This document shows, in pieces, positions 2,686-28,375 of a stretch of DNA of 64,000 nucleotides. Within the stretch, counting starts at the first letter, position 1. The number at the start of each line of letters is the position of its first letter. Position numbers and translations under genes: made by a program. The notes below the pieces were generated by a model, which saw only the letters and a program-made list of their open reading frames with translations, had not been told where the DNA came from and ran no database searches. The DNA is from Acidimicrobiales bacterium (GTDB lineage: Bacteria > Actinomycetota > Acidimicrobiia > Acidimicrobiales > CATQHL01). Location of the stretch: NCBI GenBank assembly GCA_965220035.1, contig CBDCPC010000002.1:1466151-1530150 (forward strand). Reading direction: 5' to 3'.

Positions 2686-2742
2686 ACACCTGTAATTCTA
2701 CCAGACCACAACACCCCAAACGCCGAGAAAAACACCAGCCAC

Positions 2743-9258: not shown

Positions 9259-10628
9259 GGCTTGACGTCCTGATCGAAGGGCACCTCGGTGGACATGTGG
9301 AGATTCTTGGCGCCGACGACGCGAACTTCTGGTACGACTCGGGCTATCTAGAGATGCCCGAGCCGACGCCCCTGTCGGTGCGGTTTCCCCTCCGCGAGGA
9401 GGTTTTCGATTCACCCGAAGTGGCTTATTGGCTGCAGAACCTTCTTCCCGACGATGAGGATGTGATCGAAGACTGGTGCGGCACATTCGGGGGCGATGTG
9501 GCGTGCCCTATCACACTGCTTGGCACCCCGGTGGGCGTGGAATGTGCCGGCGCGGTGCAGTTCTGCAGCCCTGATCGCACCGCCGAACTGCTCGACGCCC
9601 CCGGCGGGCTGGAACCGCTCAGCGAAGCCGCCCTGTGGGCAGGCCTACAGCGCCTGAGCGAGGACTCGTCGTTCCGGTTCGCTGCCCCCTACGGCGATTC
9701 GGGGCGCAGCGTCGCCGGGATGCAACCCAAGGATGCGCTCACCATGACTGCTGATGGTTGGGCGGTCCCGTGGGGGCGCAGAGCAACAACACATATCTTG
9801 AAACTAGACCGACGGCGGTGGCGGCACGAGACGCTCGTCGAACATGTGACGATGCGATCCGCGGCGCGCGTCGGCATCCCGACACCGCCGACCCACCTGC
9901 TCCACGGTGACGGCCTTGATGTGATTGTCGTGGAGCGTTATGACCGCCGCGTGCTGGAGGGAGCGCCAGGGCCGCTACGCATCCATCAAGAAGACTTCTG
10001 TCAAGCCTTGGGGCTTCCGCCGAAGTGCCGCAACCAAGGCGCGATCAACGGCGCGACCGTTGATCGCTGCGCCAAGATTCTCGCCGACGTTGTTGACGCC
10101 GACACCGCCGATCATGCACTACTGGCGGACATGGTCCTGTACCGGTGGATCGCAGGGGATACCGACGCGCACGCCAAAAATATCAGCATCCTGATGTCGG
10201 GTGCCGAAAGAGCACTCGCGCCGCTGTATGACGCTGCCAGCTACCTGCCGCACCGTCGCGGTGCCGAAGCGGCGCTGCCCCTAGCAATGTGGGCAGGCCG
10301 GCCGGGACGCCAGCGGAAGCTCCACAGCGCCGACACACCGCGATCTCTGCACCAGGTGGCGCGAGCGTTCAACTTGGCACCCGAGACGGTGGCTCAGCGC
10401 GTTGAGAGTCTCGCCGCTGTGACGCCCAACGCGTTCGAGACGACGATCAACACGCTAACCATGGCTGAGCAGGCCACCGCCGAGGGACTCAACCTCGCCG
10501 CCGACGTAGCTGCCCGCGCCTCTAGATGCGCCGCGATCGCAAACAAGCTCACCACCCAGCTCGCCTCGAGAGAGTCGCCCCCACAGACGCCGCACCAAGA
10601 CCTCAACGGCAGCGTCGGACTCACCTGA
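9255..10628 (+). CDS. hipA: HipA-family Ser/Thr kinase toxin
   Basis: 457 aa. N-terminal HipA coupling region (LPDDEDVIEDW), AGMQPK, catalytic region RWIAGDTDAHAKNISIL. Confidence 0.85.
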   Translation: MRLDVLIEGHLGGHVEILGADDANFWYDSGYLEMPEPTPLSVRFPLREEVFDSPEVAYWLQNLLPDDEDVIEDWCGTFGGDVACPITLLGTPVGVECAGAVQFCSPDRTAELLDAPGGLEPLSEAALWAGLQRLSEDSSFRFAAPYGDSGRSVAGMQPKDALTMTADGWAVPWGRRATTHILKLDRRRWRHETLVEHVTMRSAARVGIPTPPTHLLHGDGLDVIVVERYDRRVLEGAPGPLRIHQEDFCQALGLPPKCRNQGAINGATVDRCAKILADVVDADTADHALLADMVLYRWIAGDTDAHAKNISILMSGAERALAPLYDAASYLPHRRGAEAALPLAMWAGRPGRQRKLHSADTPRSLHQVARAFNLAPETVAQRVESLAAVTPNAFETTINTLTMAEQATAEGLNLAADVAARASRCAAIANKLTTQLASRESPPQTPHQDLNGSVGLT

Positions 10629-10914
10629 GGACACGACACCCTCAAATCGGGTCCAGCGCTGACCGGGGGGCCGTTCTGTGGCCTGGCCATCTTGGCGGCG
10701 ATTCCCGCCGCTGGCGGTGCTCGTCAGCGCCCGCCAAGGCAACCTAGGTCCCGACGCAACGGGCGCCGGGCTAGCGAGGGTGCCACCGGCGCCGATTGCG
10801 CGGACAGGCTGCCGCGCCAAAATGTGGAGACCCCCCTGTTCAAAATGTGGCGCGTTCCGATCGGCCTCTGGTTTCGGCTGGTCGGGTGTGGTGGCGAAGA
10901 CCCCACGCCGGGCG

Positions 10915-12566
10915 CTTAGCCTGAATCCACCGATTCGGGTTGGTGGTGGGCGCGTTGGGGTGGGTTTTGGTGGTTGGGGGCGTGTGGGCGTGTCGGCTGA
11001 GGTCGCCGGTGGCGGTGTGGGGGCGCCGGTGGGCGGCGTTGGGCCGGTTGGGGGCGTGTGGGGGCGCGTTGCGGCGCCGGGCGCCGGGTTGGTGGGTGTT
11101 GGCGGTGGGGGTTCAGCAGAGTTGGGGTAGGGCGCGGATGTTGGTGAGGGTTGTGTGGAACAGTGCTGCCCAGGGCCATCGTGCGGGGAGGCGCACGACG
11201 GGGCGTCCGGCGTGGTTGAGGTGGCGCCCGGGTAGGGCGAGGAGCCGGTTGCGGACGGTTTGGCCGACGGTGAGTTGGCCCGGTGGGCGACCTGTGGCGA
11301 GTCCGTTGAGCCAGCGGTAGAGGTTGTGGGCGAGTGTGGCGCAGGCCAGCCAGGCGGCGTTGGCGGCGAAGCTCCCCGAGGGCAGGTGGGTGAGGCCGGT
11401 GCTGTTCTTGAGGTCCCGGATGGCCAACTCGACGGTGGCGTGGGCGCGGTGGTAGGCGTCGGCGTCGCTGGTGTCGGGGTCGGTTCGGTTGGTGATGAAG
11501 GCGTGGTGGCGCCAGTCGGGCCACAGTTCGCCCTGCGTCGCGTCGGTGAGGCGACTGCGGCGCACGACGAGGCGCAGGGAGCGTTGTTTGCCGCGTTCGC
11601 CGGCGAGGAGGGTGGTCTCCGCGACGTGCGCCTCGCCGCCGGCGGTGTAGCCAATGGGCGCCCAGGCTTGTTCGGGAATGCGGGCGATGGCGGCTTTGAC
11701 GTGGGCGTATTGGGGGATCGTGATCGACCAGCACACCTTGAGCGCGTCGAGGCGCCCCAAGAGGTCGTAGCTGAAGAACCCCGAGTCGGCGCGCACGCAG
11801 AGTTCCCCCGCCGCGCCGGCGCGGCGCGCCCGGCCGATCGTCTCGACGACGAAATGGGCGTTGCCGCTCTGCGAGGAGCCTTTGCGCAGGCGTGCGTGGA
11901 GTATCTCCCCGGTCTCGGCGCGGGCCGCGACGAGGGGGTGATAGCCGAGTTGTTTGGTGTGCCCGTAGGCGGCGCCGGCCTTTGCCTTGCCGGACACCTC
12001 ACAGATCGTGGAATCCACGTCGATGGTCACCGACTCCTTCCCGGGACCGCCGCCGGCCGCCCACGCCCGGCCCAGCACCTGCTCGGCGGCTTTGTCCAGC
12101 TGGCGGACGTGGCCCCACGTGAACGATCGCAGGAACACCCCCACCGTCGACGGCGCCGCCGGGCGGAAACCCAACACGCCAGCGGTCGCGCCGGCGCGCA
12201 GGCGATCCACATGATCGATATGGGTGGCGCCCACCAGCATCGCCGCCACCAACGTCAAGACCTTCCGCCCCGGCGCCGCCGCGCCCACACGGCGCCCCAG
12301 GCGCACCGCGGCGTCCACCACAGACGCCAACCCCAAGCGCCCCATCAGCGTCGCCGCCGCCAACAGGCCCGCATCGGCGACCAACGACTCGTCGTCGAAG
12401 ACCACCCCCAACCGGTCAATCTTGTGCGATACTCCACTCACAGGAAGTGCCTCCCGATCCGGGCCGAAAGCCGCGGTTACTAACGGCCATTCTCCCAGGT
12501 CAGCGAGGCACTTCCGCGCATTTACACCCCCAAACGCACACCCCCCACCGGTGGATCCAGGCTCAG
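10915..12566 (-). mobile_element. IS1380-family insertion sequence, copy 2 (about 1.65 kb)
   Basis: Ends CTTAGCCTGAATCCACCG (10915..) and CGGTGGATCCAGGCTCAG (..12566). Encloses transposase 11113..12441. Confidence 0.85.
11113..12441 (-). CDS. IS1380-family transposase (copy 2)
   Basis: 442 aa, collinear with 4205..5533 product, with many substitutions, so not a recent duplicate. Confidence 0.9.
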   Translation of the reverse strand: MSGVSHKIDRLGVVFDDESLVADAGLLAAATLMGRLGLASVVDAAVRLGRRVGAAAPGRKVLTLVAAMLVGATHIDHVDRLRAGATAGVLGFRPAAPSTVGVFLRSFTWGHVRQLDKAAEQVLGRAWAAGGGPGKESVTIDVDSTICEVSGKAKAGAAYGHTKQLGYHPLVAARAETGEILHARLRKGSSQSGNAHFVVETIGRARRAGAAGELCVRADSGFFSYDLLGRLDALKVCWSITIPQYAHVKAAIARIPEQAWAPIGYTAGGEAHVAETTLLAGERGKQRSLRLVVRRSRLTDATQGELWPDWRHHAFITNRTDPDTSDADAYHRAHATVELAIRDLKNSTGLTHLPSGSFAANAAWLACATLAHNLYRWLNGLATGRPPGQLTVGQTVRNRLLALPGRHLNHAGRPVVRLPARWPWAALFHTTLTNIRALPQLC

Positions 12567-13175: not shown

Positions 13176-13520
13176 CTACAGGTAGTCGAGTTCGGCGCCG
13201 GGTGGGGTGATCGCGGTGACGAATTCGGGGATGCTCACCGCTATGGCTTCCCAAACATATTGGGGGCCCGTCTTGTGGTACTCGTGAGCCAGGAAGTTGC
13301 GCATAGCAGCCGCCTCGCGTACTAGCGCCTGTGGGTGAGCGTCGACGAACGCGGGAGACAACTTGCTTGCTGCCTCGCCAATGATCCCAATGGCTCGCTC
13401 AGCGGCGTACTGGAGGAGTAGAGAGTCGGTGAACTCGACCTCCCCGCGCCGGACCACCTCAGCGGCGACAGCGCTAGCGGCATGAATGTCCGCGACCCGG
13501 TCGGCGTCTGGGCGGGTCAC
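13176..13520 (-). CDS. hepT: HepT-like (DUF86) RNase toxin
   Basis: 114 aa with the R-x4-H-x-Y motif (MRNFLAHEYH). 4-nt overlap with the upstream mntA-like gene. Confidence 0.8.
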   Translation of the reverse strand: MTRPDADRVADIHAASAVAAEVVRRGEVEFTDSLLLQYAAERAIGIIGEAASKLSPAFVDAHPQALVREAAAMRNFLAHEYHKTGPQYVWEAIAVSIPEFVTAITPPGAELDYL

Positions 13521-13807
13521 AGCGCCACGGCGTCGGCGAGCAAGTCTGGCCAGCAGTGGCTATCTGCGTCTGCAGGGACAATATCGACAGTCCGCCCGAG
13601 AAGGTCCTCTAGGTCCAGGTGGAGGCCAGCAAGATCCATCAACGATGTGTGGGGAAGGAACTCGACGACGAAGTCGTAATCGCTGTCAGGGCCGTCTTCC
13701 CCCCGGGCAACGGAGCCGACTAGTGAGATAGACACGGCCCGGCGCCGCGGCAGTAGGGCAAGAATATCGGCTCGTAGGGTCCTCAGGATCAGATCACGGC
13801 ACGACAT
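13517..13807 (-). CDS. mntA: MntA-like minimal nucleotidyltransferase antitoxin
   Basis: 96 aa; GSVARGEDGPDSDYDFVV (G-S-x10-D-x-D NTase signature). Confidence 0.8.
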   Translation of the reverse strand: MSCRDLILRTLRADILALLPRRRAVSISLVGSVARGEDGPDSDYDFVVEFLPHTSLMDLAGLHLDLEDLLGRTVDIVPADADSHCWPDLLADAVAL

Positions 13808-14090
13808 ACCCCAAGTCTACGTGGACAAAGGTGCTGTGGTCCAAGCGCTGACACCGGAGGGCCGATGGAAGGCTGGCGACTGTGGCCTAGTCCTCGCCAT
13901 CGCGCGGTCCGAGGTGTTGTGGCGACTGGCTGCTTGGGCAGCAACGAAGTCAACGCGACATGGCGCGGTCCAGATGCAAGAGCGGTCGCAGCGAGACAGA
14001 GGAGGTCATCCCGGCCAGCGAGAACCGGCAGCGCCTGCGCGAATCCTGGCGTAAACGGGTTCTCGCCGGGAGTCATTGCGCCCTCCTCGC

Positions 14091-14210
14091 CTAGTGTCCC
14101 GAGTCGGAAGTTCGCTGGCGTTTCGATGGCCCCGCTATTCGCATTTGCGCAGGCCAGCTCGCTGCAGCAATCCTCCGAATACCAAACGAACTAATCGCTC
14201 AGGACACTAG
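14091..14210 (+). mobile_element. 120-bp MITE-like element, copy A
   Basis: Terminal inverted repeats CTAGTGTCCCGAG / CTCAGGACACTAG. The whole 120 bp recurs in inverted orientation at 44143..44262 with one mismatch seen by eye. No coding capacity. Confidence 0.8.
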
Positions 14211-14290
14211 ACCGCGCGCCTTGATCTGGCGAGCGTGACGGCCAGACTCTTGCTGGCGATACGCTCTGCCTCGCTCGAAAAGGACTTCAG

Positions 14291-15364
14291 GTGATCGTAA
14301 AATCATACAAGCCAGCGACCGTGCATAAGGATCCCCGTCAGCGAGCGGGTGCGGCCGCCGAGAGGCAAATGGCGCACTATCTGCACCGAAGGTTCAGTGA
14401 AGATCAGGGTGTCTACGTGCTACACGGTTTGAGGCTCGAGGATCCCGTCCAGCCGGAGCAGGATGGCTCCACCGGGGTGTGCCAGATCGATCATCTGCTC
14501 GTGCATCGCTGGGGGCTGTTCATCATCGAGAGCAAGTCGGTGACCGAAGAAGTGCTGGTCCACTCCGACGGCTCAGGTGGAGATGAGTGGAGCCGCGTGT
14601 ACCGAGGCAAGGAGATGGGAATGCCTTCTCCAATTCGCCAGGCGCAGCGGCAATCGGAGTTCCTGCGGGCGTTCTTGCAACGGCACCGGGAGGAATTGCG
14701 CGGGAGGGCACCTGCCGGGCTCCGCACCGTTGTCAAGCTCGTCGCGGGAACAGATCAGCATGGTTTCAAGTCGGCGCCGATCCAGTTGGTGATCGCCGTG
14801 TCCGACAAGGGGAAGATCAAACGGCGTGGTGGTTGGGAGGAGCCGCAGGAGCCGTTTCGGGTGTTCGTGACCAAGGCGGATCTGGTCACCGACAAGATCC
14901 GCGAGGAGCTTGAGCGACATAGAAGAGGCCCGACCCTGGTGGGTGCCGAATCTGCTCGCAATTACGGCATGTGGAGTATGAAAGAGCCGGAAGTTGAATC
15001 GGTGGCTGAGTTCCTCAACGCGCGACACGTGGATCGCTCGGGCGCTTCGCCACCCCGATCCAAGCGGATTGCTCCCAACCGCGATCGCAGGTCATCCCGG
15101 GACAAAGCTGACGGCACCGGACACTCGACGAAACCGACCTGCAAGCATTGCGGGTCGGACGACCTCACCGCACACTGGGGCAAGTACGGCTACTACTGGC
15201 GGTGCGGCACGTGTGAGCAGAACACGGCGATGCCCGTGATCTGCTCTGCATGTGAAACCGAGGGAACACGGGGCAAAGGGGTGCGGGTCCGCAAGGACAA
15301 GGCAACGTATTCTCGTGACTGCGAAGCATGCGGGCATTCCGAAACAATTTGGACTGAGGACTGA
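14291..15364 (+). CDS. NERD-domain protein with C-terminal topoisomerase-type zinc ribbons
   Basis: GTG start. NERD core (GAAAERQMAHYL, GVCQIDHLLVHRWGLFIIESK). C-terminus has two C4 ribbons (CKHCGSDDLTAHWGKYGYYWRCGTCEQ; CSACE...CEACGH). Confidence 0.8.
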   Translation: MIVKSYKPATVHKDPRQRAGAAAERQMAHYLHRRFSEDQGVYVLHGLRLEDPVQPEQDGSTGVCQIDHLLVHRWGLFIIESKSVTEEVLVHSDGSGGDEWSRVYRGKEMGMPSPIRQAQRQSEFLRAFLQRHREELRGRAPAGLRTVVKLVAGTDQHGFKSAPIQLVIAVSDKGKIKRRGGWEEPQEPFRVFVTKADLVTDKIREELERHRRGPTLVGAESARNYGMWSMKEPEVESVAEFLNARHVDRSGASPPRSKRIAPNRDRRSSRDKADGTGHSTKPTCKHCGSDDLTAHWGKYGYYWRCGTCEQNTAMPVICSACETEGTRGKGVRVRKDKATYSRDCEACGHSETIWTED

Positions 15365-15508
15365 ACACCGCTCGCCCCGGCGAGACGTTGTCGGTGGAGA
15401 GTTGGCATCACCCGCGGCCTTTCTCATCTATCGCACGTCACCGCCGGCCTGCGACCTGAGCGTGTCGACGGCTCCATCACCGCCCAGCACGACCCCGGGA
15501 GATTCCCC

Positions 15509-15826
15509 ATGCGTACCCACACCCGTATTCGTCGCGGCCCCCGCCGCGGCACCAAGCCGCCTTCCACGTCGATCGGCTGGGGAGTCAGCCTCACGCAAGC
15601 GCTGATAGCGGCCGCCGCGGGCGCCGCCTACGGCCGCGAAGCCGCGGCGGGGTTCGGTGATCCTGCGCTGCAGGGGCTCGTGGCACTTCTTGCTGCCGCC
15701 GGCGTGGTCGTCGTTCTCGGCCAGGAGCATCTGCGCGAAGCAATGGAGCGCGGTGTCGGCACCTCGGAGCGGGAGGGTTATGGCATGCGAGCCTTGGTGC
15801 TCACCATCGCCCACCCTTGGTCATAG
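15509..15826 (+). CDS. small hypothetical membrane protein (two hydrophobic helices)
   Basis: 105-aa ORF ending 10 nt inside the KAP gene. Hydrophobic stretches LTQALIAAAAGAAYG and LVALLAAAGVVVVLG. No homology recognised; could be a high-GC artefact. Confidence 0.3.
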   Translation: MRTHTRIRRGPRRGTKPPSTSIGWGVSLTQALIAAAAGAAYGREAAAGFGDPALQGLVALLAAAGVVVVLGQEHLREAMERGVGTSEREGYGMRALVLTIAHPWS

Positions 15827-17040
15827 CGGGCACGTTGATCTATCTCGCGAGCTACGAGCACGGGTGGTGGCCGTTGGGCCGCCCCGAGGATCACACGTTG
15901 CAGCGAGGTGTGGTGTTCGGCGTGCTCGTCGCGATTCTGGTGTGGCTGCTGGTCGCTGCTGCCACCACCCCACTGTTGGCCCTCGACGCCCGCAAGCGCG
16001 CCGGCGCGTCGTCGGCGCCCTGGCCCCCGGTGCCTGCTGATGTCGCAGGCTTGCCGTGGCCGGACACCTTCCAGGCGCCGCCGGGAGATCCGTACGAGAA
16101 CGACGCCTTCGAGCGGGAGGAGGATGTGCGCCGGTTCGGCGAGTTGCTGCTAGCCGGTCCGGCACCGGCGGTGTGGGCCCTTGCGGGGCCGTGGGGCTCG
16201 GGGAAGTCGGCGTTCGCCCGGATGGCGGCCGCGGAGTGCCAGCGCCAGGACGCCGTCAGCAAGTGCATCGAGGTGTCCGCCCCGGCGGGACGTCTGGGAG
16301 GTGCACCGTTGTTCGATCTCGCGGCGGCGTTGGCGCACGGTCTGGCCCCGGCGGACGCTGGGGAGCGCCGCGGTGGGATCTCCCAGATGTTCGATCTGGC
16401 GCGCTCCTACGCGGAACCTGTCCGCCTGGCGCAAGAGTTGCGCGCCGGCGATGACCCGCGGGGGACCCTCAATGAGTTTGCTGGGGTGGTGCGGGAACTG
16501 GTGGAAGAAGAAGCTGGCCGGGTCGTCCTGTGGATCGACGACCTTGACCGCTGCCCGCCGGATTACGCGTTGGAGATGCTGCACGCCGTGCGCGCCGTCA
16601 CTGCGTGCCGCAATCTCTCGACAGTGCTCGTGGTGAACCACAAGGCGCTCGTCACCGCAGTCGACCACAGGTATGGGCTGGGCCCCGAAGCGGGGGCCTA
16701 CCTCGACCGCTTCATCGATTTCAGGATCGACCTACCGCCGTTGGGCCCCGGGGATGTCCGGCCAGGGGGGCTGCGCGAACGGTGGATGCTCGAGCGCGCT
16801 GAGACCATCGGCCTGGCCGCGACGATGAAGGACACCGCCCCCCTCAGGATGCTGGTCGGCGCGGCCTGGACCGAGGCGCTGTCCTTGCGGGACCTCGAGC
16901 AGCTTGTGTACCGCGCTTCGGTGGTGCTGGGAGGCATCCCAAGCCGCCTGCCCCCTCTGCTCGGCGAGGTGGACCCCTTTACCTTGTTGGGTGGCTCTGG
17001 CGTGGCAGTGTCGGGGCTGGTTGCTCGCCGCGGCGGGTAG
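15817..17040 (+). CDS. KAP-family P-loop NTPase with N-terminal transmembrane segment (Tmn-like)
   Basis: Walker A LAGPWGSGKSAF, KAP signature VVLWIDDLDRCPPDYALEMLHAVR, TM helix VVFGVLVAILVWLLVAAATTPLLAL. Listed start is TTG. The stop lies immediately before the IS110 element. Confidence 0.8.
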   Translation: MVIAGTLIYLASYEHGWWPLGRPEDHTLQRGVVFGVLVAILVWLLVAAATTPLLALDARKRAGASSAPWPPVPADVAGLPWPDTFQAPPGDPYENDAFEREEDVRRFGELLLAGPAPAVWALAGPWGSGKSAFARMAAAECQRQDAVSKCIEVSAPAGRLGGAPLFDLAAALAHGLAPADAGERRGGISQMFDLARSYAEPVRLAQELRAGDDPRGTLNEFAGVVRELVEEEAGRVVLWIDDLDRCPPDYALEMLHAVRAVTACRNLSTVLVVNHKALVTAVDHRYGLGPEAGAYLDRFIDFRIDLPPLGPGDVRPGGLRERWMLERAETIGLAATMKDTAPLRMLVGAAWTEALSLRDLEQLVYRASVVLGGIPSRLPPLLGEVDPFTLLGGSGVAVSGLVARRGG

Positions 17041-17210
17041 GGCTGTAGCCCCCTGTCAGTTCGATGGCCCGGGGGGTGTTGCCGCCCGCCGCGGTCGGGT
17101 GTCCTGGGACCTCTGACAGGGACATGCCTTCGGGGCTGGACGTAAAGTGGTTGAGGCGCAGGCACCGGGAGCATCCGATTGAGAATGCCCCCGGACCCGA
17201 GGAGCCCGCC
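17041..17210 (+). ncRNA. candidate IS110 bridge RNA (5' non-coding end)
   Basis: About 170-nt non-coding leader directly upstream of the recombinase gene. 9-bp stem CCCTGTCAG (17051..17059) / CTGACAGGG (17113..17121) encloses a GC-rich 53-nt segment. Size and position match published IS110-group bridge RNAs. Confidence 0.3.
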
Positions 17211-18431
17211 ATGGAAGAACCCGACTGCGTCGACATCGAGGTGTTCGTCGGCGTCGACATCGCCAAGGGTGATCACTACGCCTGCGCGGTGACCGCAGGC
17301 GGCGCCGAGGTGCTGGCGCGCGGCGTGCGCAACGACGAGGCGGCGATCGGCCGGCTCATCGACGACGCCGCCGCTCACGGTGCGGTCGCTTTGGTGATCG
17401 ACACGACCAGCTCGGCGGCGTCGCTGCTGTTGGAGGCCACCGCTCGCCGAGAGGTCCCGGTGGCCTATGTGACCGGCCTGGCGATGCGGCGCGCCGCGGA
17501 CCTCTACGCCGGCGCGGCCAAGACCGACCCCAAAGACGCCGCGGTGCTCGCCGACTACGCCCGCCGCAACGCCGACCGCTTGACGTGGACGGCGCCCAGC
17601 GACGAACTCTTGGCGCGCCTGCGGATCCTCAACGGCCGAGACGCCGACCTCGCCGCGGACGCCACCAGAGCCGCCAACCGCCTCAGAGACGCCCTGGTGG
17701 CCATCTCGCCCGCCCTGGAGCGAGCCGTCGGCGACAAGGTGGCCTCCAGCGGCGGCGCACGCGACGCCCTGGCGCGCTGGGGCACCCCCACCGCGCTCAG
17801 GTCCGCCGGGCGGGCACGAGTGCGCGCCCGCATCGCCAAACGCTCCCCCAGAGCCGCTCAACGCCTCACCGAAGCGATCTGGGCCGCCCTCGATGCGCAG
17901 ACCCTCACCGTGGTCGCAGAGGCCGCCTGGGGCGACACCATCTGCGAACTCGCCGCCGACCTGGACCGCATCTGCGCTCGCCGCGACCAACTCGCCAGCG
18001 ACATCGAAGACGCCTTCATGGCCCACCCGCTGGGAAAAGTCCTCGCCAGCCTGTGCGGGTTCGGCCCGCGGACCGGAGCCCGGACCCTCGCTGAGATCGG
18101 CGACCCCCACCGCTTCGCCGACGGCGGCCGCCTCGCCTCCTACGCCGGGCTCGCACCCGTGGACTGGCAATCAGGGCGCAGCGCTGCGTCCCGCAAACCC
18201 CGAGGCGGCAACCACCGCCTCAAAAACGCCCTGTTCACCGCAGCCTTTGTCGCCGCCCAACACGACCCCGACGCACGCGCCTACTACCAGCGCAAACGCT
18301 CAGAAGGCAAACGCCACAACGCCGCGGTCGTCTGCGTCGCCCGACGCCGCTGCAACATCATCCTCGCCATGCTCAAAACCCAAACCCCCTACCAACCACC
18401 CCAACCCCAAGACCTGCCCCAAGCCGCCTAG
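17211..18431 (+). CDS. IS110-family transposase/recombinase
   Basis: Start at MEEPDCVDIEVFVGVDIAKG (ATG 17211, inside ORF 17064..18431). DEDD N-domain (GVDIAKGDH, VIDTTSS), C-terminal GFGPRTGARTLAEIGDPHRFADGGRLASYAGLAP...SGR. Confidence 0.9.
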   Translation: MEEPDCVDIEVFVGVDIAKGDHYACAVTAGGAEVLARGVRNDEAAIGRLIDDAAAHGAVALVIDTTSSAASLLLEATARREVPVAYVTGLAMRRAADLYAGAAKTDPKDAAVLADYARRNADRLTWTAPSDELLARLRILNGRDADLAADATRAANRLRDALVAISPALERAVGDKVASSGGARDALARWGTPTALRSAGRARVRARIAKRSPRAAQRLTEAIWAALDAQTLTVVAEAAWGDTICELAADLDRICARRDQLASDIEDAFMAHPLGKVLASLCGFGPRTGARTLAEIGDPHRFADGGRLASYAGLAPVDWQSGRSAASRKPRGGNHRLKNALFTAAFVAAQHDPDARAYYQRKRSEGKRHNAAVVCVARRRCNIILAMLKTQTPYQPPQPQDLPQAA

Positions 18432-18505
18432 AAAGACTTGACAACAAGACAGGGACACCCCCCGATCCCTTCCCGGCCGCCGACCGGGAGGCCATATCCC
18501 TCGCT

Positions 18506-18823
18506 GTGTGTGCACACGTTCTGCTCAACGTCTGGGACCCAGAAACACGGGAGCAGGTTCTTGAGCTTGTCACCAGGGAAACGCCACCCCACGAGGATGA
18601 GGTGCGCCACCTGATCGAGCCCACACCCTTCATCCCCTGCGTAGGGGGCGGACCCTCGTTCGTCGAGGCCCTGCATCCGGCGCTGGCGGCGCTTCGGGCC
18701 TGCTACCACGAGCATTTCACCGGGCGTGTGCCGGCTCTGTCGATCATCAGCGGCTGGGCAAGCGAGATCACGCCACCACTCATCAAGGCTGGTCGCCGGC
18801 GCCGTGAACCGACCAGGCGCTGA
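18506..18823 (+). CDS. hypothetical 105-aa ORF (possibly the displaced 3' end of the KAP NTPase gene)
   Basis: GTG start with no obvious SD. Its frame remains open upstream into the IS110 3' flank. Overlaps the PLD gene start by 20 nt. No motif recognised. Confidence 0.35.
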   Translation: MCAHVLLNVWDPETREQVLELVTRETPPHEDEVRHLIEPTPFIPCVGGGPSFVEALHPALAALRACYHEHFTGRVPALSIISGWASEITPPLIKAGRRRREPTRR

Positions 18824-19457
18824 CAGTCGCACTGCGTCTTCGCTGATCGAGGGCTTCCTTCGGGACAATCCTGGCGGCGCGTTGTTCGTGGCGGTGGGGT
18901 ACGCCAGTGTCGCCGGCATCGCCTGGTTGGCCGAACGGACCGGCGACCGTCCGGTCACGTTGCTCATCGGCCACGTGCGGCGCAACCACTTCGCGGAGAT
19001 GTCGGACAAGGACCGCGACACGGCAATCCGGTTCCTGCGCCGCGGCGACGTGCAAGTCCTCACCTGGTACCAGAAGCGCCGAGACGACCGTCCCGCTCGT
19101 GAGGCGCACCTCAAGGTCTGGGCCGTCATGGCCGAGAGCCCCCGGCGTCGCGGACGTCCCGGCGCCGTCGAGGCGATGCTGGTCGGCTTGGGCAATCTGA
19201 CCAAGGCCGGGCTTTTCCACAACGAGGAGGCATTCGCGCACGCCGCAGGCGAGGACCTAAAGCGCATCGGCGCGCAACTGGAACGACTGCGTTCTCACCA
19301 GTGGAAGCGCAAGGACAAGATCCTCGAGTACATCACGCCAGAGGCGGTGGCCGAACGGCCCGGCTGCCTGGCCTCGCTACTGCCCGGCGTCGTCGCCGCA
19401 ACCTTCACCACGACGGCGCGGGCCTTGGTCAGGTCTGCGAGGATCGTCACGAGTTAG
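18804..19457 (+). CDS. PLD-like (HKD, Nuc/NgoFVII-type) domain protein
   Basis: In-frame GTG 18804 chosen within ORF 18726..19457. LFVAVGYASVAGIAWL, HKD motif EAHLKVWAV followed by VGLGNLTKAG. Single HKD domain, so a dimer is expected. Confidence 0.65.
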   Translation: MNRPGADSRTASSLIEGFLRDNPGGALFVAVGYASVAGIAWLAERTGDRPVTLLIGHVRRNHFAEMSDKDRDTAIRFLRRGDVQVLTWYQKRRDDRPAREAHLKVWAVMAESPRRRGRPGAVEAMLVGLGNLTKAGLFHNEEAFAHAAGEDLKRIGAQLERLRSHQWKRKDKILEYITPEAVAERPGCLASLLPGVVAATFTTTARALVRSARIVTS

Positions 19458-19498
19458 TCCCTCCCGAACTGGGGAGACGGCTGCCGCGGAGGACAACG

Positions 19499-20155
19499 AT
19501 GGACGCTACAGACTGGTCTGCGTGCGATTCGGGTCGATCGTTCGCCGCGATCGACTTCGAGACGGCCACAAGCCAGCGCAGTTCGGCCTGCGCTGTCGGG
19601 GTGGTCATCTTCGAGCAGGGCTCCCCCGTCGACAGGCGCAGACTGCTCATTCGCCCGCCCGGGAACCGCTACGACCCCTTCAATTCGGCTCTGCACGGGA
19701 TCGGCCTCGCCGACACCGGGGACAGTCCCCCGTTCCCCGAGGTCTGGGACCAGGTCGCCGGCATGCTCGACGGGCATCTCGTGGTTGCGCACAACACGGC
19801 ATTCGACATGTCGGTCCTGCAGAGGAGCGCTGAACACTACGGCTATCAGCCCGAATCGTTCCCGTTCGCGTGCACCTATCGCCTCGCACGCTCGGCACTT
19901 CCCGAGGCGCGATCATGGGGGCTCAAAGGGCTGGCCGCCGAGTTCGAGATTCCGCTGTCGCATCACGATCCACTCTCGGACGCACACGCCGCCGGCTGCC
20001 TGTGGCTGGCGCTACCCAAACGCTTCAACACCACACATCCCGAACTCCTCGCACGGCACCGATACCGCCTCGGTCGCTGCGATCTGAGCGCCTACCGCCC
20101 GTACTCCAACGCGCAGCAATCAGCGCGAGGAACCTCAAGCTTGGTTTGGTTCTGA
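19499..20155 (+). pseudogene. DEDDh 3'-5' exonuclease (DnaQ-like) domain; 5' part of an exonuclease-BRCT gene split by IS3
   Basis: ATG 19499. Exo I AAIDFETA, Exo II VVAHNTAFDMSVL, Exo III HHDPLSDAHAAG. The last 4 codons + stop (LVWF*) come from the IS3 left end. Confidence 0.85.
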
Positions 20156-20228
20156 CTTCGTGTCCGCTTTGGAGTGGTTGATTACGCAGCATCGGTGTGG
20201 GAGTGTGGCGCTGTGAGAGGAGCGTCAG

Positions 20229-20576
20229 ATGAGTGATTCGAGTGTGCAGGGGACCGGTGGGGGGCGCCGCGGGCGCCGTCGCCGGTTGTCGCCGGTGGAG
20301 AAGTACGAGGCGTTCGTGCAGGTGACGTCGGGGGAGATGAGCGTCGCGGAGTGCGCGGACCACTGGGGGGTGGACCGGTCGACGATCATGCGCGCCCGGC
20401 GGGTCGCCAAGCAGGGCGCCTTGGACGCGTTGGCGTCGTCGCGCCCGGGGGTGCGCGTCGGCGGGGTGGATCCGGAGCTGGTGGGGGCCCGCGCCGAGGT
20501 GGCGCGGCTGGGCGAGGCGCTGTGCGAGATGGCGGTGAAGGTGACGTTGTTGGAGGGAAAAGAGCGTTGGGGGTGA
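20229..20576 (+). CDS. IS3 OrfA (HTH + leucine-zipper)
   Basis: 115 aa; LSPVEKYEAFVQVTSGEMSVAECADHWGVDRSTIMRARR. Confidence 0.85.
   Translation: MSDSSVQGTGGGRRGRRRRLSPVEKYEAFVQVTSGEMSVAECADHWGVDRSTIMRARRVAKQGALDALASSRPGVRVGGVDPELVGARAEVARLGEALCEMAVKVTLLEGKERWG
20555..20561 (+). promoter_or_regulatory. -1 programmed ribosomal frameshift heptamer G_GGA_AAA
   Basis: In the orfA zero frame the codons read gaG GGA AAA gag (X XXY YYZ). The -1 frame continues GKRALGVTAAWPPRV into orfB. Confidence 0.6.
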
Positions 20577-21661
20577 CCGCCGCGTGGCCCCCGCGCGTCG
20601 ACGCTGTGGTGAAGGTCGCCGCCTTGGACCTCGTGGAGGCCGCCGCGGGGCAGGGCTGGACGGCGCGGCGGGCGTGCGCCACCTTGGAACTCGACGAGCG
20701 GCGCTGGCGGCGCTGGCAGGCGCGCGAGGCGGCCGGCCGCCTCGACGACGCCACCGCCGGCGGCGGCGCGGTGCACGCCATCACGCCCACGGAGCGCCAG
20801 GCGATCCTGGACCTCTTCGACCGGTGGGGCGACATCGACGGCGGCTACCGCAAGTTGGCCCACCGCGGCTCCTACGAGGGCCTCGTGTGGGTGTCTCCGT
20901 CCACGGTGTACCGCGTTCTGGCAGGTGAGGGGCTCGTTCTACCCGCTCGGGCGCCGCGCGCGCCGGTCCCGGCGCGCCCCCTGGGGGACTGGGTGCGCTG
21001 GGAACGCCACCAGATCTGGATCTATGACATCACCCACTTCGGTGCCGCGGGGCGCGTCGCCTACGCCATCATGGACGTCGTGACCCGCAAATGGCTCGCC
21101 ACACTCGTGACTGCCGAGGAGTCCGCCACACAGGTCGAGGTCATCTTCACCGACGCCCTCGACGTCGAGGGCCTGTGGGGGCGCATCGAGGCCCGCTGGG
21201 CGAACGACGCCCGCCAGGGCGACGGCAGCGACGGCGGCGCCGACGAGCCGATCCTGTTGGCAATGTCGGACAACGGCCCCCAGATGCGCGCCGGCACCAC
21301 CCGGGAGTTCTTGGCCCTGTGCTCCATCGCGGCGCACTTCGGCCGCCCCGGCACCCCCACCGACCAAGCCTGGATCGAAACGCTGTTCGGTCACGTCAAA
21401 GGCGAGTGGCCCCACCTCGAACAGATCACCGACCCCAATGTGCTGCGAGCCGAACTCGACATCGTCCGCCACGACTACAACACCCGACGCCTGCACGCCT
21501 CCTTGGGCTACGTCACTCCCGACGACGAACACCAAGGCCGCGGCGAACACATCCGCCAGGCCCGCCGAGACGGCCTCGCCCGAGCCCGCCTCGCCCGCAT
21601 CGCCTACCATCGCAACAACAAACCAAACCAGCCATGCACACACCCGCCCAGTGCTGCGTAA
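20573..21661 (+). CDS. IS3 OrfB (DDE integrase core)
   Basis: Frame -1 relative to orfA, GTGA overlap. WIYDITHF (D), LAMSDNGPQM (D), IETLFGHVKGEW (E), HDYNTRRLHASLGYVTP. Confidence 0.9.
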   Translation: MTAAWPPRVDAVVKVAALDLVEAAAGQGWTARRACATLELDERRWRRWQAREAAGRLDDATAGGGAVHAITPTERQAILDLFDRWGDIDGGYRKLAHRGSYEGLVWVSPSTVYRVLAGEGLVLPARAPRAPVPARPLGDWVRWERHQIWIYDITHFGAAGRVAYAIMDVVTRKWLATLVTAEESATQVEVIFTDALDVEGLWGRIEARWANDARQGDGSDGGADEPILLAMSDNGPQMRAGTTREFLALCSIAAHFGRPGTPTDQAWIETLFGHVKGEWPHLEQITDPNVLRAELDIVRHDYNTRRLHASLGYVTPDDEHQGRGEHIRQARRDGLARARLARIAYHRNNKPNQPCTHPPSAA

Positions 21662-21695
21662 TCAAAACCCGAAAAGCGGACATTTACTCAGAAGC

Positions 21696-22103
21696 ACCTC
21701 AAGCTCGTTCAGCGCCAAGGACTTCACTCCCCGCGCCGAACCCGACCCCGATGGTCTGCTGTACACCACGAAGATCGCCTTCACTGGCGCCCTGGAGTGC
21801 ATGCCCCGGCGTGAAGCATTCCAAGCAGCAGTAGACGCCGGAGCCGCGCCCACAGGATCAGTCAGCAAACGCACCGACTATCTCGTGATCGGAACAATCG
21901 ACCTGCGCAGAGTCGGCGAAACCGGACTGAGCAGCAAGCACCGCAAGACCCTCGATCTCATCGCTGAAGGCAGCCAGATCCAAGTCATCGATGAAGACCA
22001 ATTCGTCTGCCTCCTCGCCGGAACAATCACCCGCGACTCCCCAGACCCAACTCCCGAAGACCAGATCCGCCACACCACCACCACCCAAAATCGAGCGCGC
22101 TGA
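21696..22103 (+). pseudogene. BRCT-domain 3' part of the IS3-split exonuclease gene
   Basis: TSSSFSAKDF...KIAFTGALECMPRREAFQAAVDAGAAPTGSVSKRTDYLVIG...IQVIDEDQFVCLL = BRCT fold pattern. Frame joins 20141 to 21706 exactly. Confidence 0.8.
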
Positions 22104-22160
22104 CTAGTTGCTGCCATTATGCTGGCATCGAATGACTGATAGTGGCGCTATGCTGCCACT

Positions 22161-22487
22161 ATGAGCAGGAATCGTGAGTTCTCGGCCGCCACGCTGGACG
22201 CCTTGGGAATGCTCGCCGCGCGGGTGCGGGTTGCTCGGCGCGAGCGGCGGATGCGCGCCGCCGAACTGGCCGAGCGGGTCGGCGTGTCGCTGACGACGCT
22301 GCGCAAGGTGGAACGCGGCGATCCGACCGTCGCGCTCGGGGTTGCCTTCGAGGTCGCCGCCATGGTCGGGGTGGCGTTGTTCCACGACGATCGCCAGCGG
22401 CGAGACCTGGAGGCGGAGTATCTGGCTTCTCGTCTGGCTGTGTTGCCGTCAGCGGTGCGGCCGCCTGTCGTTGATGATGACTTCTGA
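22161..22487 (+). CDS. hipB: XRE-family HTH antitoxin (HipB-like), second module
   Basis: 108 aa; MRAAELAERVGVSLTTLRKVERGD. 14-nt overlap with the downstream hipA. Confidence 0.8.
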   Translation: MSRNREFSAATLDALGMLAARVRVARRERRMRAAELAERVGVSLTTLRKVERGDPTVALGVAFEVAAMVGVALFHDDRQRRDLEAEYLASRLAVLPSAVRPPVVDDDF

Positions 22488-23745
22488 GAGCCGCACGCAC
22501 CCGCCCGAGGCGTTCGTCTGGGTGTGGCTGCCCGCAGCGTCGTCGCCGGTCGTCGCTGCTCGCGCCACCGACTACGGGACGGCGGTGGGGTTCGTGTATG
22601 GGCGGAGCTATCTGGCGCGGTCCGACGCCATCGCTCTCAGCCTGCCGGATCTGCCGCTGCGCCCCGGTGAGACGTCCACCGGCGATGTGCCGGGCTGCGT
22701 CGCTGACGCGGCGCCGGATTCGTGGGGCCGCCGGGTGATCGAGCGGCGCCTGGGCGTCGCCGCCGGCGGGCTCAGCACTCTCGGCTATCTGCTGGAGTCC
22801 GGTTCGGACCGTATCGGCGCGCTCGACCTGCAGCACGATCCCGACACGTACCGCCCTCGCGTCGGCGACGGCGTGCCCATCGAGGATCTCGCCGAGGCGA
22901 CCCGGCGCGTCGAGGAAGGGTTGCCGCTGCCCGAGCCCCTGCGCCGGGCGCTGCTGCACAGCACCGCCGCCGGCGGCGCTCGGCCGAAGGCGCTGATCGC
23001 CGGCGGCGGCGGCGGCCGCATCGCCAAGTTCCCCTCGGCCACCGACACCTCCCCGGTGACCCAGAGCGAGTTCGTGGCCATGACGTTGGCCCGCCACGCG
23101 GGCCTCGAGGTCGCCGGCGTCTCCCTGCAGTCGGTGGCCGCCAAGCATGTCCTACTCGTGGACCGCTTCGATCGGACTCCCGAAGGCGGCCGGCGCTTCG
23201 TCGTCTCAGCCCGTACCGTCCTGCAGTCGGGCCGCCGGCGGCCGAGCGCCTCGGAGAGTTACCCGCTGCTCGTCGAAGACATCAGGGCCCGCTTCGCCGA
23301 ACCGACTCAGCAGATGCGGGAACTGTTCGCCCGGATCACGTTCAACATCCTCTGCGCCAACACCGACGATCACCCGCAAAACCACGCCGCATTCTGGGAC
23401 GGCGAGACATTGACGTTGACCCCCGCCTTCGACGTCTGCCCACAGTTGGCTTTCGGCGCCGGCGCCGAACAGACCATGGCGTACGGCCCCAACGGCGACC
23501 GGGCCAGCCAAGTTGCCCGCTTACTCGCCCACGCGCCCACCTACCGCCTCACCGCCCCCGAGGCCGCAGCCATCGTCGACCACCAAATCGACACAATCCT
23601 CGACTACTGGCACGCCACCTGCGACCAAGCCGAACTGACCCGCGCCCAACGCGATGCCCTCTGGGGCCACCAGTTCCTGAACCCCCACGCGCTCACCAAC
23701 TACACAACCAGCCCACGCCCCGCTCCTCTGGGCCCCGACGTCTAG
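22474..23745 (+). CDS. hipA: HipA-family kinase toxin, second module
   Basis: ATG 22474 inside ORF 22342..23745. AAPDSWGRRVI, GGARPKALI, FNILCANTDDHPQNHAAF. Confidence 0.85.
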   Translation: MMTSESRTHPPEAFVWVWLPAASSPVVAARATDYGTAVGFVYGRSYLARSDAIALSLPDLPLRPGETSTGDVPGCVADAAPDSWGRRVIERRLGVAAGGLSTLGYLLESGSDRIGALDLQHDPDTYRPRVGDGVPIEDLAEATRRVEEGLPLPEPLRRALLHSTAAGGARPKALIAGGGGGRIAKFPSATDTSPVTQSEFVAMTLARHAGLEVAGVSLQSVAAKHVLLVDRFDRTPEGGRRFVVSARTVLQSGRRRPSASESYPLLVEDIRARFAEPTQQMRELFARITFNILCANTDDHPQNHAAFWDGETLTLTPAFDVCPQLAFGAGAEQTMAYGPNGDRASQVARLLAHAPTYRLTAPEAAAIVDHQIDTILDYWHATCDQAELTRAQRDALWGHQFLNPHALTNYTTSPRPAPLGPDV

Positions 23746-23824
23746 CTGTGCATGCCGGGGACATTGTCCCTGGGTTGGTGGGGTGCGAAACCGCCGCCCG
23801 CCGCCCGGGCTGCATACTTCGGGT

Positions 23825-24445
23825 ATGGATGCTGCACCGGTGCTTGGTGCGCTGCCGGAGACCTTCGGGACATCGCAGTACCGCGACGCTGCAGGTGTCG
23901 CCGCGTCGTCAGCCTCGAGGGCGCTGCGCCGGCTGGCAGAGCGTGGCCTTGTGCGCCGTTTGGGCCATGGGTGGTGGCACCAGCCGGCCCTCACCTCACC
24001 GCCGCCGGCGACCAGCGACACGCCGCCGGGGCTTTGGAGTTGGATGCAGCGCCGGGCCGCGGCGATCGGTGGATCGACCTGACCAGCCGCCCGGCAGCAC
24101 GATTCCCGGGAGGATGGTCAGACGAGGCTCGGCGGGTGGCCTGGTGGACGACGCCTGATGCGCTCGCCGACCAGATCGCAGGATGAGCCGCCCAGAACAA
24201 CCCGCACCTCAGCGGTCCGGGCGCTCCTGGATCTGCGCTACCCCGATTCGGCCGGCCAGCCGAGCCTCAGTCAGCTTGACGAAGTGATCCTCGGCCTCGG
24301 ATACGAGCACTTCGACATCCTCGAGTCGGAATGGGCCAAGAGCGCGGCGCAAGGCTTGGTTCCGGCGGCCAGCCAGGACTTCGCTGCCATCTTCGAGGGC
24401 GTCGAGGCGCAGCTTGCCGCCGCGCTTACCCACGAGTCGCCATGA
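23825..24445 (+). pseudogene. AbiEi-like antitoxin gene apparently broken over three frames
   Basis: Frame 1: wHTH MDAAPVLGALPETFGTSQYRDAAGVAASSASRALRRLAERGLVRRLGHGWW (stop 24082). Frame 2: IDLTSRPAARFPGGWSDEARRVAWWTTPDALADQIAG (stop 24186). Frame 3: SAVRALLDLRYPDSAGQPSLSQLDEVILGL (stop 24445). No AbiEii partner follows. Confidence 0.4.
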
Positions 24446-24634
24446 CGTCCCAGAACCCGAGGTCACAGCGGCGCCTGACTTGACACGGCTTCACCCGTGC
24501 CTGCTGAGCGTCAGCCATCGCGCCATCCTGCGTGGTAATAGATGTGGGAACCGAGGCTCACGGAGAGCGTTCGCCACCGCCCCGCCGCAGCCGCTTGGTC
24601 AGTTGGGTTCAGTCGCGACAGGGTCGAGTCGGCG

Positions 24635-24895
24635 TCAGGTTCGCAGCGGGTCGGCTTCGACGATCGCGGTGACCGTCTTGCGGCCCAGTCCAGATGCCTC
24701 GGCGATCTGTCGCAGCGAGGCGCCAACGCGGTTCGCGGTGCGGATCATGTCGTCGCGGATTGCGATCTCCTTGTGGGCCCGCTCGGCGCTGAGGCCAACC
24801 ACGGCGAGCGCCGCGCCGATCTCATTGTCGAGGCCGCTGCGGTATTTGTCCAATGTCGCGTTGGCGGCGGACACGTCGGCGTCGCTGTAGCTCAT
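24635..24895 (-). CDS. small HTH protein (86 aa)
   Basis: C-terminal HTH GASLRQIAEASGLGRKTVTAIV. Start overlaps the stop of an upstream 53-codon ORF (ATGA). Confidence 0.5.
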   Translation of the reverse strand: MSYSDADVSAANATLDKYRSGLDNEIGAALAVVGLSAERAHKEIAIRDDMIRTANRVGASLRQIAEASGLGRKTVTAIVEADPLRT

Positions 24896-25053
24896 GGCTC
24901 CTCCCGCAGGCCCGCTGCCAGCTTGTCGCGGACGGCGAGGAGCGTCGGGATCCGGGGCGACAGTTCCCCGGCCGCCTCAGCGACGTTGAGATGCGCGATG
25001 ACCATGCCCATCAACTCCAACGCTTCGACCCGCTCCAACTCGACGCGCATCAT
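24892..25053 (-). CDS. 53-aa ORF not in the ORF track (MMRVELERVEALELMGMVIAHLNVAEAAGELSPRIPTLLAVRDKLAAGLREEP)
   Basis: Hand-translated. ATGA coupling to 24635..24895. Its first codons and upstream region recur in degenerate form at 29975..30072. Confidence 0.4.
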   Translation of the reverse strand: MMRVELERVEALELMGMVIAHLNVAEAAGELSPRIPTLLAVRDKLAAGLREEP

Positions 25054-25391
25054 TGGCCCAAACCGTACCAGCTATGGCTCGTATCGGACCAGCTATCCGG
25101 ACCGAGCCTCCCCGGGCTCCCCCCAAGCTGACCGCTTAAGACCCGAGGCAGACCACTGACCTCGCGAAACCCGAGGCACATGCGTGTTAGATCTGCGGTA
25201 GCACACGACCGAACCAGCCAGCCTTCGCGAGTTGTGGGGAGGTTCGGTCCAGGTCGGCATCCCGACGATTGCTAGTCCGGGCATGTCCGTCATGGTCGCA
25301 TCATGGGGCCGCCCGGTTGGCGGTCGCAAGCCCGACTGTGTCGACAGCATGTATCCGGGGCGGCCAGGTGCACGCATGTAGGGTCGTCCGC

Positions 25392-25811: not shown

Positions 25812-26140
25812 AGGTTCAGTTGCCGGAGAATCCCCCGGTTCTGCCGGGCGGGTTAGTCGTCGTGTCGCGTGTCATCGTTTCTTGCTCAGTCGGTGGTTTG
25901 AGTCTGACGCAAGGAGATGAGCATGGCGAAGGCACGGCAGCGCCGCGACATCTCCCTGGCGGCGTGGCAAACGCTGCACGCGACCGACATCGTGCTCGCC
26001 CCACTCAGCCGCATTCGGTGATCCCGCAGAAGTGTGCTGCGGCTTCGAGGCGACATAACCCGGTGGTTGATGGCGCACCGTGTGTATGATCCGGTCATTC
26101 GGGAGTCCGCGCCGCTTCGCTATCCGTTTGCCGTGACGGG

Positions 26141-27496: not shown

Positions 27497-27630
27497 ATAG
27501 CGTGAATAACGCTCGGCCGCGAGGTCCGATCAGATTGGTGTGTCCCGGGTTTCGCGCGGTCAGCTTGCTTGACTCCGGGCCGTGGTGGCGTGGCGGAGCT
27601 TGGACGGTATCGCCGTGATACCATGTCGTT

Positions 27631-28238: not shown

Positions 28239-28375
28239 CGACCCGCCGCGCCGACAACCTCCCCAGGCTTCGCGCCGGCTGGGCGGTTTGGGTCTCGGCC
28301 ACCTCGCCGGAGCCGACTTGTCCATATCCGGGCTTGTCGAGGCGCGAGTTCGGGCTCTCGGCCTGGTTCCGCTGT

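Follow-up and report, generated by a model that had tools for sequence, protein, structure and literature searches.

PifA and EF_KAP, both validated single-gene defences, share the KAP_NTPase domain. EF_KAP joins transmembrane (TM) helices, a KAP domain and a C-terminus of undescribed function in one gene, and confers Walker-B-dependent protection against phage (PMC13552941). PifA has no TM helices (PMC13001434). Tmn, also a membrane-anchored P-loop NTPase acting as a single-gene defence, belongs to the YobI family; two TM helices are inserted within its P-loop domain, and it is phylogenetically distinct from KAP (PMC13001434). In addition, the PDC entries of PADLOC comprise 145 candidate systems, predicted through "guilt-by-embedding" from loci of BREX, DISARM and Type I restriction-modification (bioRxiv 10.1101/2024.01.29.577857). 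Two of these, PDC-S20 and PDC-S48, bear on the present locus, and a literature search for them by name found nothing. Here we analyse positions 14291–22103 of a 64,000-nucleotide stretch of an Acidimicrobiales bacterium (contig CBDCPC010000002.1; the whole stretch is called the window below). This locus carries genes for a NERD nuclease-like protein, a KAP-family NTPase, a phospholipase D (PLD)-superfamily protein and a DEDDh exonuclease with a BRCT domain (Exo).

The region is, in our judgement probably, an ordinary, decaying and actively shuffled defence/toxin-antitoxin (TA) island of four independent genes in the chromosome of a sponge-associated bacterium, and not a new multi-gene immune system. 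A sequence-only reading of the window had proposed a composite defence system of six separate genes, interrupted by two insertion sequences (IS), within a TA-rich island. Pfam and NCBIfam place the NERD, KAP, Exo and two IS domains where they had been called, and the TA-rich setting is confirmed by HepT/MNT and HipB/HipA flanks. The genes number four, however, and no conserved linkage of NERD, KAP, PLD and Exo was found among their homologues. An intact, IS-free copy of the locus, in the order NERD-KAP-PLD-Exo-HTH-HipA, is present in a related Acidimicrobiales metagenome-assembled genome (MAG; OZ242194.1, loci L001/L011). Only NERD looks intact in the window; a lesion is present in each of KAP, PLD and Exo. 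Decay of the locus, which had been read from the IS110 and IS3-like insertions, is thus greater than claimed, because it also includes a KAP frameshift and an S129L substitution in PLD.

The KAP gene accounts for three of the supposed genes. Its open reading frames (ORFs) 15509–15826, 15817–17040 and 18506–18823 had been taken for a "small TM ORF", a KAP NTPase and an "unknown 105-aa ORF", and are one gene split by a 1-nt deletion and an IS110 element. The two outer ORFs, like ORF 18726–19457, have no direct Pfam or PADLOC match. A protein search with the KAP ORF returned intact homologues of 599–614 aa, the best of which, P0001 (610 aa, 97% identical), has the N-terminus MRTHTRLRRGPRRGTKPPSTS of the "small TM ORF" and the C-terminal stretch AVCAHVLLNVWDPETREQVLELVTRETPPHEDEV of the 105-aa ORF. 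By tblastn, P0001 residues 1–103 align to 15509–15817, residues 102–490 to 15811–16977 and residues 490–599 to 18458–18787, and the pseudogene accordingly consists of the pieces 15509–15809, 15810–16977 and 18461–18823. The frameshift at 15810 parts the N-terminal piece from the rest. When the missing C is restored and IS110 is deleted, a KAP frame of 610 codons opens. P0001 spans all three ORFs, the repair opens the frame, and L001/L011 is intact without the IS; the three ORFs are therefore the N-terminal, central and C-terminal fragments of a single gene. The deletion at 15810 may be genuine, or it may be an assembly error in the homopolymer run. Compared with L001, another single nucleotide is missing at window 15411 (C4 to C3), between NERD and KAP, and since both deletions fall in homopolymers, assembly errors are possible.

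The protein belongs to the KAP family by its match to PF07693 (KAP_NTPase, E=3.7e-21 at 15817–17040; 74.5–76.1 bits against a cutoff of 20). After repair it reads as four N-terminal TM helices, Walker A (GPWGSGKS), Walker B (VVLWIDDLDR) and a helical C-terminal region, and both Walker motifs are invariant in the family alignment (A3). Hydropathy peaks lie at residues 50–75, 93–115 and 129–161, with a weaker one at about 25–45, and an AlphaFold2 (AF2) model of low confidence (predicted local distance difference test, pLDDT, 61) has long helices at 21–46, 51–81, 86–118 and 130–161, all N-terminal to the P-loop. The membrane segment is thus N-terminal, as had been proposed, but it holds four helices, the number typical of KAP NTPases, not one.

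With EF_KAP and PifA this protein shares the KAP_NTPase domain with intact Walker A and B motifs, and its TM-KAP-C-terminal single-gene layout is that of EF_KAP. EF_KAP differs in its membrane segment: of its two TM helices one lies within the KAP domain, whereas the four of the window protein all precede it. The PifA model, in turn, matches weakly and partially (E=4e-11). A resemblance to Tmn had also been suggested, and it does extend to membrane anchoring, a P-loop NTPase and single-gene defence. Membership in that family was nevertheless rejected: the TM helices all precede Walker A, the domain is KAP and not YobI, and the Tmn model gave no PADLOC match to the repaired protein at E<=1. The PADLOC check that had been proposed, run on the repaired genes, gave a partial match of KAP to PDC-S20 and a match of Exo to PDC-S48, both single-gene candidates. 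PDC-S20 is the best KAP match (E=4.9e-26), and three more PDC-S20 models match as well. Like that candidate, KAP is a single gene, and its homologues occur alone in defence/TA islands; the window family differs in being about 610 aa long, in carrying four TM helices at its N-terminus and in having its own C-terminal region.

The linkage of the four genes was followed in other genomes. Among the loci found, L001/L011 is the only other one with all four genes, and no co-occurrence across lineages was seen. Its DNA is 95–97% identical to that of the window, so it counts as the locus itself and adds no independent evidence. KAP homologues at 83% identity (L007–L010) follow DarT/DarG, the 64% homologue (L002) has an NTP_transf_2 gene on one side and IS21 elements on the other, and those at about 50% (L003–L006) stand at the end of a Tad/T2SS-like string (T2SSE, two T2SSF and several small ORFs). 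Within 5–10 kb of the non-syntenic KAP homologues, in four contexts, neither NERD nor PLD nor Exo was found. NERD homologues on plasmids of Deinococcus, Pseudoalteromonas, Vibrio and Marinobacter have unrelated neighbours and stand alone. In a scan of species-representative genomes that yielded 38 loci, Exo lies downstream only in L011–L014, where PLD is at least 85% identical; the other 33 PLD loci (35–56% identical), of 37 genome loci, have no Exo, KAP or NERD within 10 kb, and PLD homologues at 65–66% (L062–L064) and 49% (L065–L068) likewise have no Exo beside them.

Exo was followed through contigs encoding homologues and through viral contigs. The 83% copy (L049–L051) lies between PASTA kinase/gatCAB and ligA, the 68% copy (L052–L056) after a block in which a Type ISP restriction enzyme alternates with a Metallophos and SMC-like pair, and the 55% copy (L057–L061) beside ligA and gatCAB; 80 viral contigs carry copies at 26–44% identity. 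No PLD, KAP or NERD was found near Exo homologues from 83% down to 27%, the 80 viral contigs included. Altogether, more than 35 loci of PLD relatives and more than 90 of Exo relatives are without the partner genes. Every component is thus found without the others, which argues against one conserved multi-gene system. Absence of conserved linkage is what the sequence-only reading itself had named as evidence against its composite system, and for NERD and KAP it is what we found. The one linkage that survives is the adjacency of PLD and Exo, in a single narrow clade.

At the boundary between KAP and PLD, the PLD-Exo cassettes of L012–L014 share DNA homology with the window that starts sharply at 18792–18799, 5–12 nt upstream of the PLD start codon and within the final ~11 codons of KAP, and that runs on through the 41-nt spacer into Exo. 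The KAP homologues P0002 and P0003 end in ...ITPPR, which is exactly where read-through begins in the copies of the window and L001. Because cassette homology starts at this point and the KAP tail after ...ITPP reads into the cassette, the 20 nt by which KAP and PLD overlap are a scar of recombination. A reading of this overlap as translational coupling was rejected, since the overlap falls on the recombination boundary.

Exo encodes a DnaQ-like DEDDh exonuclease whose RNase_T/DEDDh domain begins at 19499 (Pfam) and whose C-terminal half lies beyond the IS3-like element, in 21706–22103. With the IS excised, ...SARGTSS joins SFSAKDFTPR... in frame, which yields 346 aa, 95% identical to the L001 gene. 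From end to end the repaired protein matches NCBIfam PRK06195 (DNA polymerase III subunit epsilon; E=4e-59, 200 bits, below the equivalog cutoff of 373), and its C-terminal part is similar to the BRCT domains found in LigA and RFC1, PF00533 being present in many relatives. It also belongs to the PADLOC candidate PDC-S48 by profile match (E=2.6e-30) at both ends, the N-terminal part aligning to profile positions 4–175 and the C-terminal fragment to 322–406 of 411. Synteny with ligA and gatCAB is kept in the homologues at 83% (L049–L050) and 55% (L057–L060), which suggests, by gene context, a putative core repair/replication-type copy existing alongside island copies. The genome with L013 seems to hold both a full-length 325-aa Exo (P0153) and a truncated copy next to PLD. 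Between L052 and L053–L056 (about 500–6000), Exo and the downstream DUF222-HNH, AAA_16 and PIN genes are identical, and the upstream block is either a Type ISP restriction enzyme or a Metallophos gene paired with one for an SMC-like ATPase; judged by its gene content, this is a putative defence hotspot anchored by the Exo gene.

The PLD gene starts with GTG at 18804, and close homologues such as P0027 share this start. The protein itself has no direct Pfam or PADLOC match, and a PDB sequence search with its profile found nothing significant. Its assignment as a single-HKD protein, already made from the sequence, is supported by the family alignment, in which AHLKVW...LVGS[AG]NLT..G..N.E is invariant (the HKD signature), by relatives that match PF13091 (P0083, 32.7 bits against a cutoff of 27) and PF09565, and by an AF2 model (pLDDT 81.7). 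The modelled fold is that of PLD proteins, matching the SauUSI PLD domain, BfiI, NgoAVII, Zucchini, NucT and Nuc (Foldseek probability 1.0, E 2e-6 to 8e-3). With Nuc, NucT, BfiI, NgoAVII, the SauUSI N-terminal domain and Zucchini, the family shares the HxK...GSxN...E motif and the PLD fold. It differs from these single-HKD nucleases in a basic insertion, about 10 residues long in this clade, and in a conserved C-terminus in which G-C is followed by a hydrophobic helix and basic residues, likely a membrane anchor. The window copy keeps H102 and K104, and Leu replaces the otherwise invariant Ser129 of the catalytic motif GSxN; among 31 sequences this substitution occurs in the window copy alone, and the 93%-identical copy in L011 has Ser.

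DISARM membership of PLD was considered and rejected: no DrmA (helicase) or DrmB (DUF1998) gene lies next to PLD in the window or in L001. The DrmC model does not match the window protein, and relatives match the DrmC/ZacB models weakly (1e-7 to 1e-8). In distant PLD relatives, the neighbouring adh_short, beta-lactamase and deaminase genes stay syntenic from genus to genus. An AIPR gene (PF10592) that is 83–87% identical between loci stands divergently beside PLD genes only ~49% identical (L013/L014 8421–9935, minus strand; L065–L067, e.g. L065 4395–5627, minus strand), and this may reflect either allele swapping beside AIPR or a true AIPR and PLD pairing.

NERD belongs to its family by PF08378 (E=7.5e-18; 65.5 bits against a cutoff of 22.1). 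An alternative ATG start lies at 14369, and the gene, free of stops, shares 95% identity with the L001 copy. The topoisomerase-type zinc ribbons that had been called at its C-terminus are borne out as four conserved CxxC pairs, which together with a G.YGYY..C..C motif are kept in full-length plasmid homologues of 26–36% identity; the topoisomerase label is not, as PF01396 has no match at E<=1 in residues 254–357. These homologues are annotated as nuclease-related domain proteins. Against PADLOC defence-system models NERD has no match except a marginal CARF/PD-DExK one (E=1e-3), the viral-contig scan with NERD yielded no relatives, and a PDB sequence search found nothing significant. A CoiA-family gene lies near the NERD zinc-ribbon gene both in L001 (7209–8333, minus strand) and on the Vibrio plasmid pTUMSAT-OK2 (L151 7422–8657, minus strand), which may be coincidence.

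How the locus should be read depends on how these observations are weighed. A single composite defence system of NERD, KAP, PLD and Exo-BRCT, in which KAP would serve as the membrane sensor/ATPase and the nucleases would act as effectors, is highly improbable. The genes do lie on one strand at short distances (a NERD-KAP gap of 144 nt, the KAP/PLD overlap of 20 nt and a PLD-Exo gap of 41 nt), the related L001 has the same order, and predictions place both KAP and PLD at the membrane; but the only other full set is a close syntenic relative, each gene occurs without the others at moderate divergence, and the KAP/PLD overlap is a recombination junction. Several points weigh against four independent genes. 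The PLD-Exo block of ~1.75 kb, with both genes on one strand and a gap of 41–45 nt, recurs in three independent contexts: behind KAP (window and L001), behind an operon of a TerB_N/TerB_C protein, a BrxC/D-like ATPase and a DEAD helicase (L012), which looks Shango-like, and beside a divergent AIPR gene (L013 and L014, one locus at 96% identity). Given such adjacency, PLD and Exo may form one two-gene unit instead of being independent genes. The sampling of KAP contexts is thin, with four independent non-syntenic ones. The single strand and short gaps in the window/L001 lineage would allow co-transcription; a scan for sigma-70 promoters and terminators was uninformative in this 68%-GC DNA, its counts being at shuffle level. 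Finally, the PDC-S20 alignment covers only profile positions 166–327 of 464, the NTPase core.

From the recurring block it could be argued that PLD and Exo-BRCT make up a true mobile module of two genes, a membrane-anchored HKD nuclease acting together with a DnaQ-like exonuclease, which has landed behind various defence genes, with NERD and KAP as unrelated neighbours. We regard this as distinctly unlikely, and we are similarly doubtful that the block is an undescribed two-gene defence cassette of sponge-symbiont Acidimicrobiales, moving as a unit with a fixed left boundary behind KAP, the Shango-like operon and AIPR. The same sharp left boundary and the constant intergenic gap favour a module, yet all cases fall within the one narrow clade, PLD at 66% identity or less is never found with Exo, and Exo at 83% or less is never found with PLD. 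Moreover, Exo is damaged in four of the five PLD-adjacent copies while the PLD frame is open: the window copy is split by the IS, L012 has an out-of-frame deletion of residues ~86–172 with loss of the HNTAFD motif, and L013/L014 is truncated after residue ~190, without BRCT. Loss of Exo beside an open PLD argues against selection on the pair. An explanation that we find less strained, though still unlikely, is that the locus in part has no defence role, Exo-BRCT being a duplicated core exonuclease of the DnaQ/PRK06195 type, for repair or replication, and PLD a lineage-specific membrane protein of sponge Acidimicrobiia, both in a recombination-prone region. The ligA/gatCAB neighbourhood of many Exo relatives suggests a repair role and not immunity, PRK06195 is the best NCBIfam match, the L013 genome seems to keep a full-length copy besides the truncated one, and the synteny of distant PLD relatives involves adh_short, beta-lactamase and deaminase genes. 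On the other hand, Exo matches PDC-S48, flanks the swapping defence blocks of L052–L056 and is common on viral contigs, and PLD relatives weakly match DrmC/ZacB and sit among TA genes. The match to PDC-S48 is itself one to a candidate, and that to PRK06195 lies below the equivalog cutoff.

If the locus is an island of four independent genes, NERD with its double zinc ribbon, the TM KAP NTPase, the membrane-anchored PLD and DEDDh Exo-BRCT would be separately acquired single-gene modules placed head to tail, and each intact gene would most likely act alone, as family membership suggests. KAP would be an ATP-dependent membrane sensor/effector like PifA and EF_KAP. PLD and NERD would be nucleases, again by family. 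Exo-BRCT, in turn, would represent either the PADLOC candidate PDC-S48 or a copy, placed in the island, of a core exonuclease of repair/proofreading type.

The features of the locus and its flanks are collected in Table 1.

Table 1. Coordinates of the locus, its lesions and its flanking genes in the window.
Feature	Position	Strand	Support
HipA	9255–10628		
IS1380-like transposase	11113–12441	-	
HepT/MNT toxin-antitoxin pair, left flank (context)	13176–13807	-	PF01934 + PF01909
NERD nuclease-like gene, C-terminal double zinc ribbon (four CxxC pairs), appears intact	14291–15364	+	PF08378
KAP-family P-loop NTPase gene, ~610 aa repaired, now pseudogene	15509–18823	+	P0001 covers all three ORFs; PF07693; PDC-S20
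KAP frameshift, one C lost from C4 run	15806–15810	+	Pairwise alignment: GCCCCACCC in L001, GCCCACCC in window
IS110-family element, ~1.48 kb, in KAP codon ~490	16978–18460	+	Empty site in L001 GAGGTGGACCCCCCCGATCCC; transposase ORF 17064–18431
Module junction	18792–18803	+	blastn boundaries; homology to PLD-Exo cassettes of L012, L013, L014 begins
Single-HKD PLD-superfamily protein, 217 aa, GTG start	18804–19457	+	Alignment A1; AF2 and Foldseek; relatives match PF13091, DrmC, ZacB
DEDDh (DnaQ-like) exonuclease with C-terminal BRCT, 346 aa repaired	19499–22103	+	IS splits gene into 19499–20141 and 21706–22103
IS3-family-like element, ~1.56 kb, in Exo	20142–21701	+	TG...CA ends; about 50–54-nt imperfect inverted repeats; empty site in L001
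HipB-like HTH and HipA kinase toxin, right flank (context)	22161–23745	+	Same pair 3' of Exo in L001

The ends of the IS110 element are ambiguous by ~3 nt within a C-run. Its transposase matches Pfam DEDD_Tnp_IS110 and Transposase_20 and belongs to NCBIfam transpos_IS110 (201 bits against a cutoff of 140); the element has no terminal inverted repeats, as is usual for the IS110 family. An Rfam scan of 13500–23000 gave no match, for instance none to an IS110-associated RNA family. The IS3-like element is flanked by a 4-bp AGCT repeat (20138–20141 and 21702–21705), with the 10-nt repeat ACCTCAAGCT as an alternative. Its ORFA spans 20229–20576 and its ORFB runs to 21661 in a different frame, with Pfam HTH_32 and rve_3 domains. 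This layout, the TG...CA ends and the AGCT repeat agree with the IS3 family, but NCBIfam scores are 113.9 bits for IS3 (cutoff 160) and 86 bits for IS481, both below the cutoffs.

Coding regions were judged by frame analysis of G+C at third codon positions (GC3) in the window, whose overall G+C is ~68%. It supports plus-strand coding at 14291–15364, 15509–17040, 17064–18431, ~18800–19457, 19499–20155, 20229–21661 and ~21700–22103. NERD, KAP, IS110, Exo and the IS3-like element all lie on this strand between HepT/MNT, on the minus strand, and HipB/HipA, and the flanks hold many TA genes and IS elements.

Synteny with L001 breaks on both sides of the locus. On the left, a 122-nt element resembling a miniature inverted-repeat transposable element is present in two 99%-identical inverted copies (14090–14211 and 44142–44263) with 9-nt terminal inverted repeats (CTAGTGTCC/GGACACTAG), and the first copy stands exactly at the synteny break (window 14205). 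Downstream of HipA, synteny at 93–97% identity is broken by the blocks 23750–25200, 25830–27536 and 28278–30089, which are absent from L001 and indicate further insertions or rearrangements in the island; short repeats lie near them (25110–25154, 27537–27586 and 30021–30070).

Further IS copies occur elsewhere in the window. A DDE_Tnp_1 IS of ~1 kb has three copies at 88–92% identity (7824–8834, 32729–33739 and 35849–36860), and the IS1380-like transposase gene of Table 1 has an 85%-identical partner at 4205–5533, each of the pair being beside G-rich degenerate repeats (4038–4195 and 10913–11092). At 47083–51363, 52894–56916 and 62175–63692 there are two giant ORFs with unusual domain mixes, PPDK_N with cadherin-like domains and CotH kinase with M1 peptidase and a lamin-tail domain, and a 111-nt tandem repeat of 10 copies. 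Giant mixed-domain ORFs and tandem repeats are typical eukaryote-like traits of sponge symbionts. The closest public relatives of all the genes are MAGs of sponge-associated Acidimicrobiales (Ca. Poriferisodalis, Spongiisocius, Aldehydirespirator and others).

The value of this analysis is mainly corrective: an apparent "six-gene composite system" proves to be four unrelated island genes, the extra ORFs coming from a frameshift and an IS. The novelty that remains is modest and consists of a possible PLD-Exo cassette and a predicted tail-anchored HKD nuclease family. L001 (OZ242194.1) offers an IS-free reference copy of each gene, including the PDC-S20 and PDC-S48 candidates. The PLD proteins represent a poorly characterised, predicted tail-anchored HKD nuclease family that is largely confined to sponge-associated Acidimicrobiia, and the locus as a whole illustrates clearly, down to individual gene boundaries, how defence genes are shuffled in sponge symbionts.

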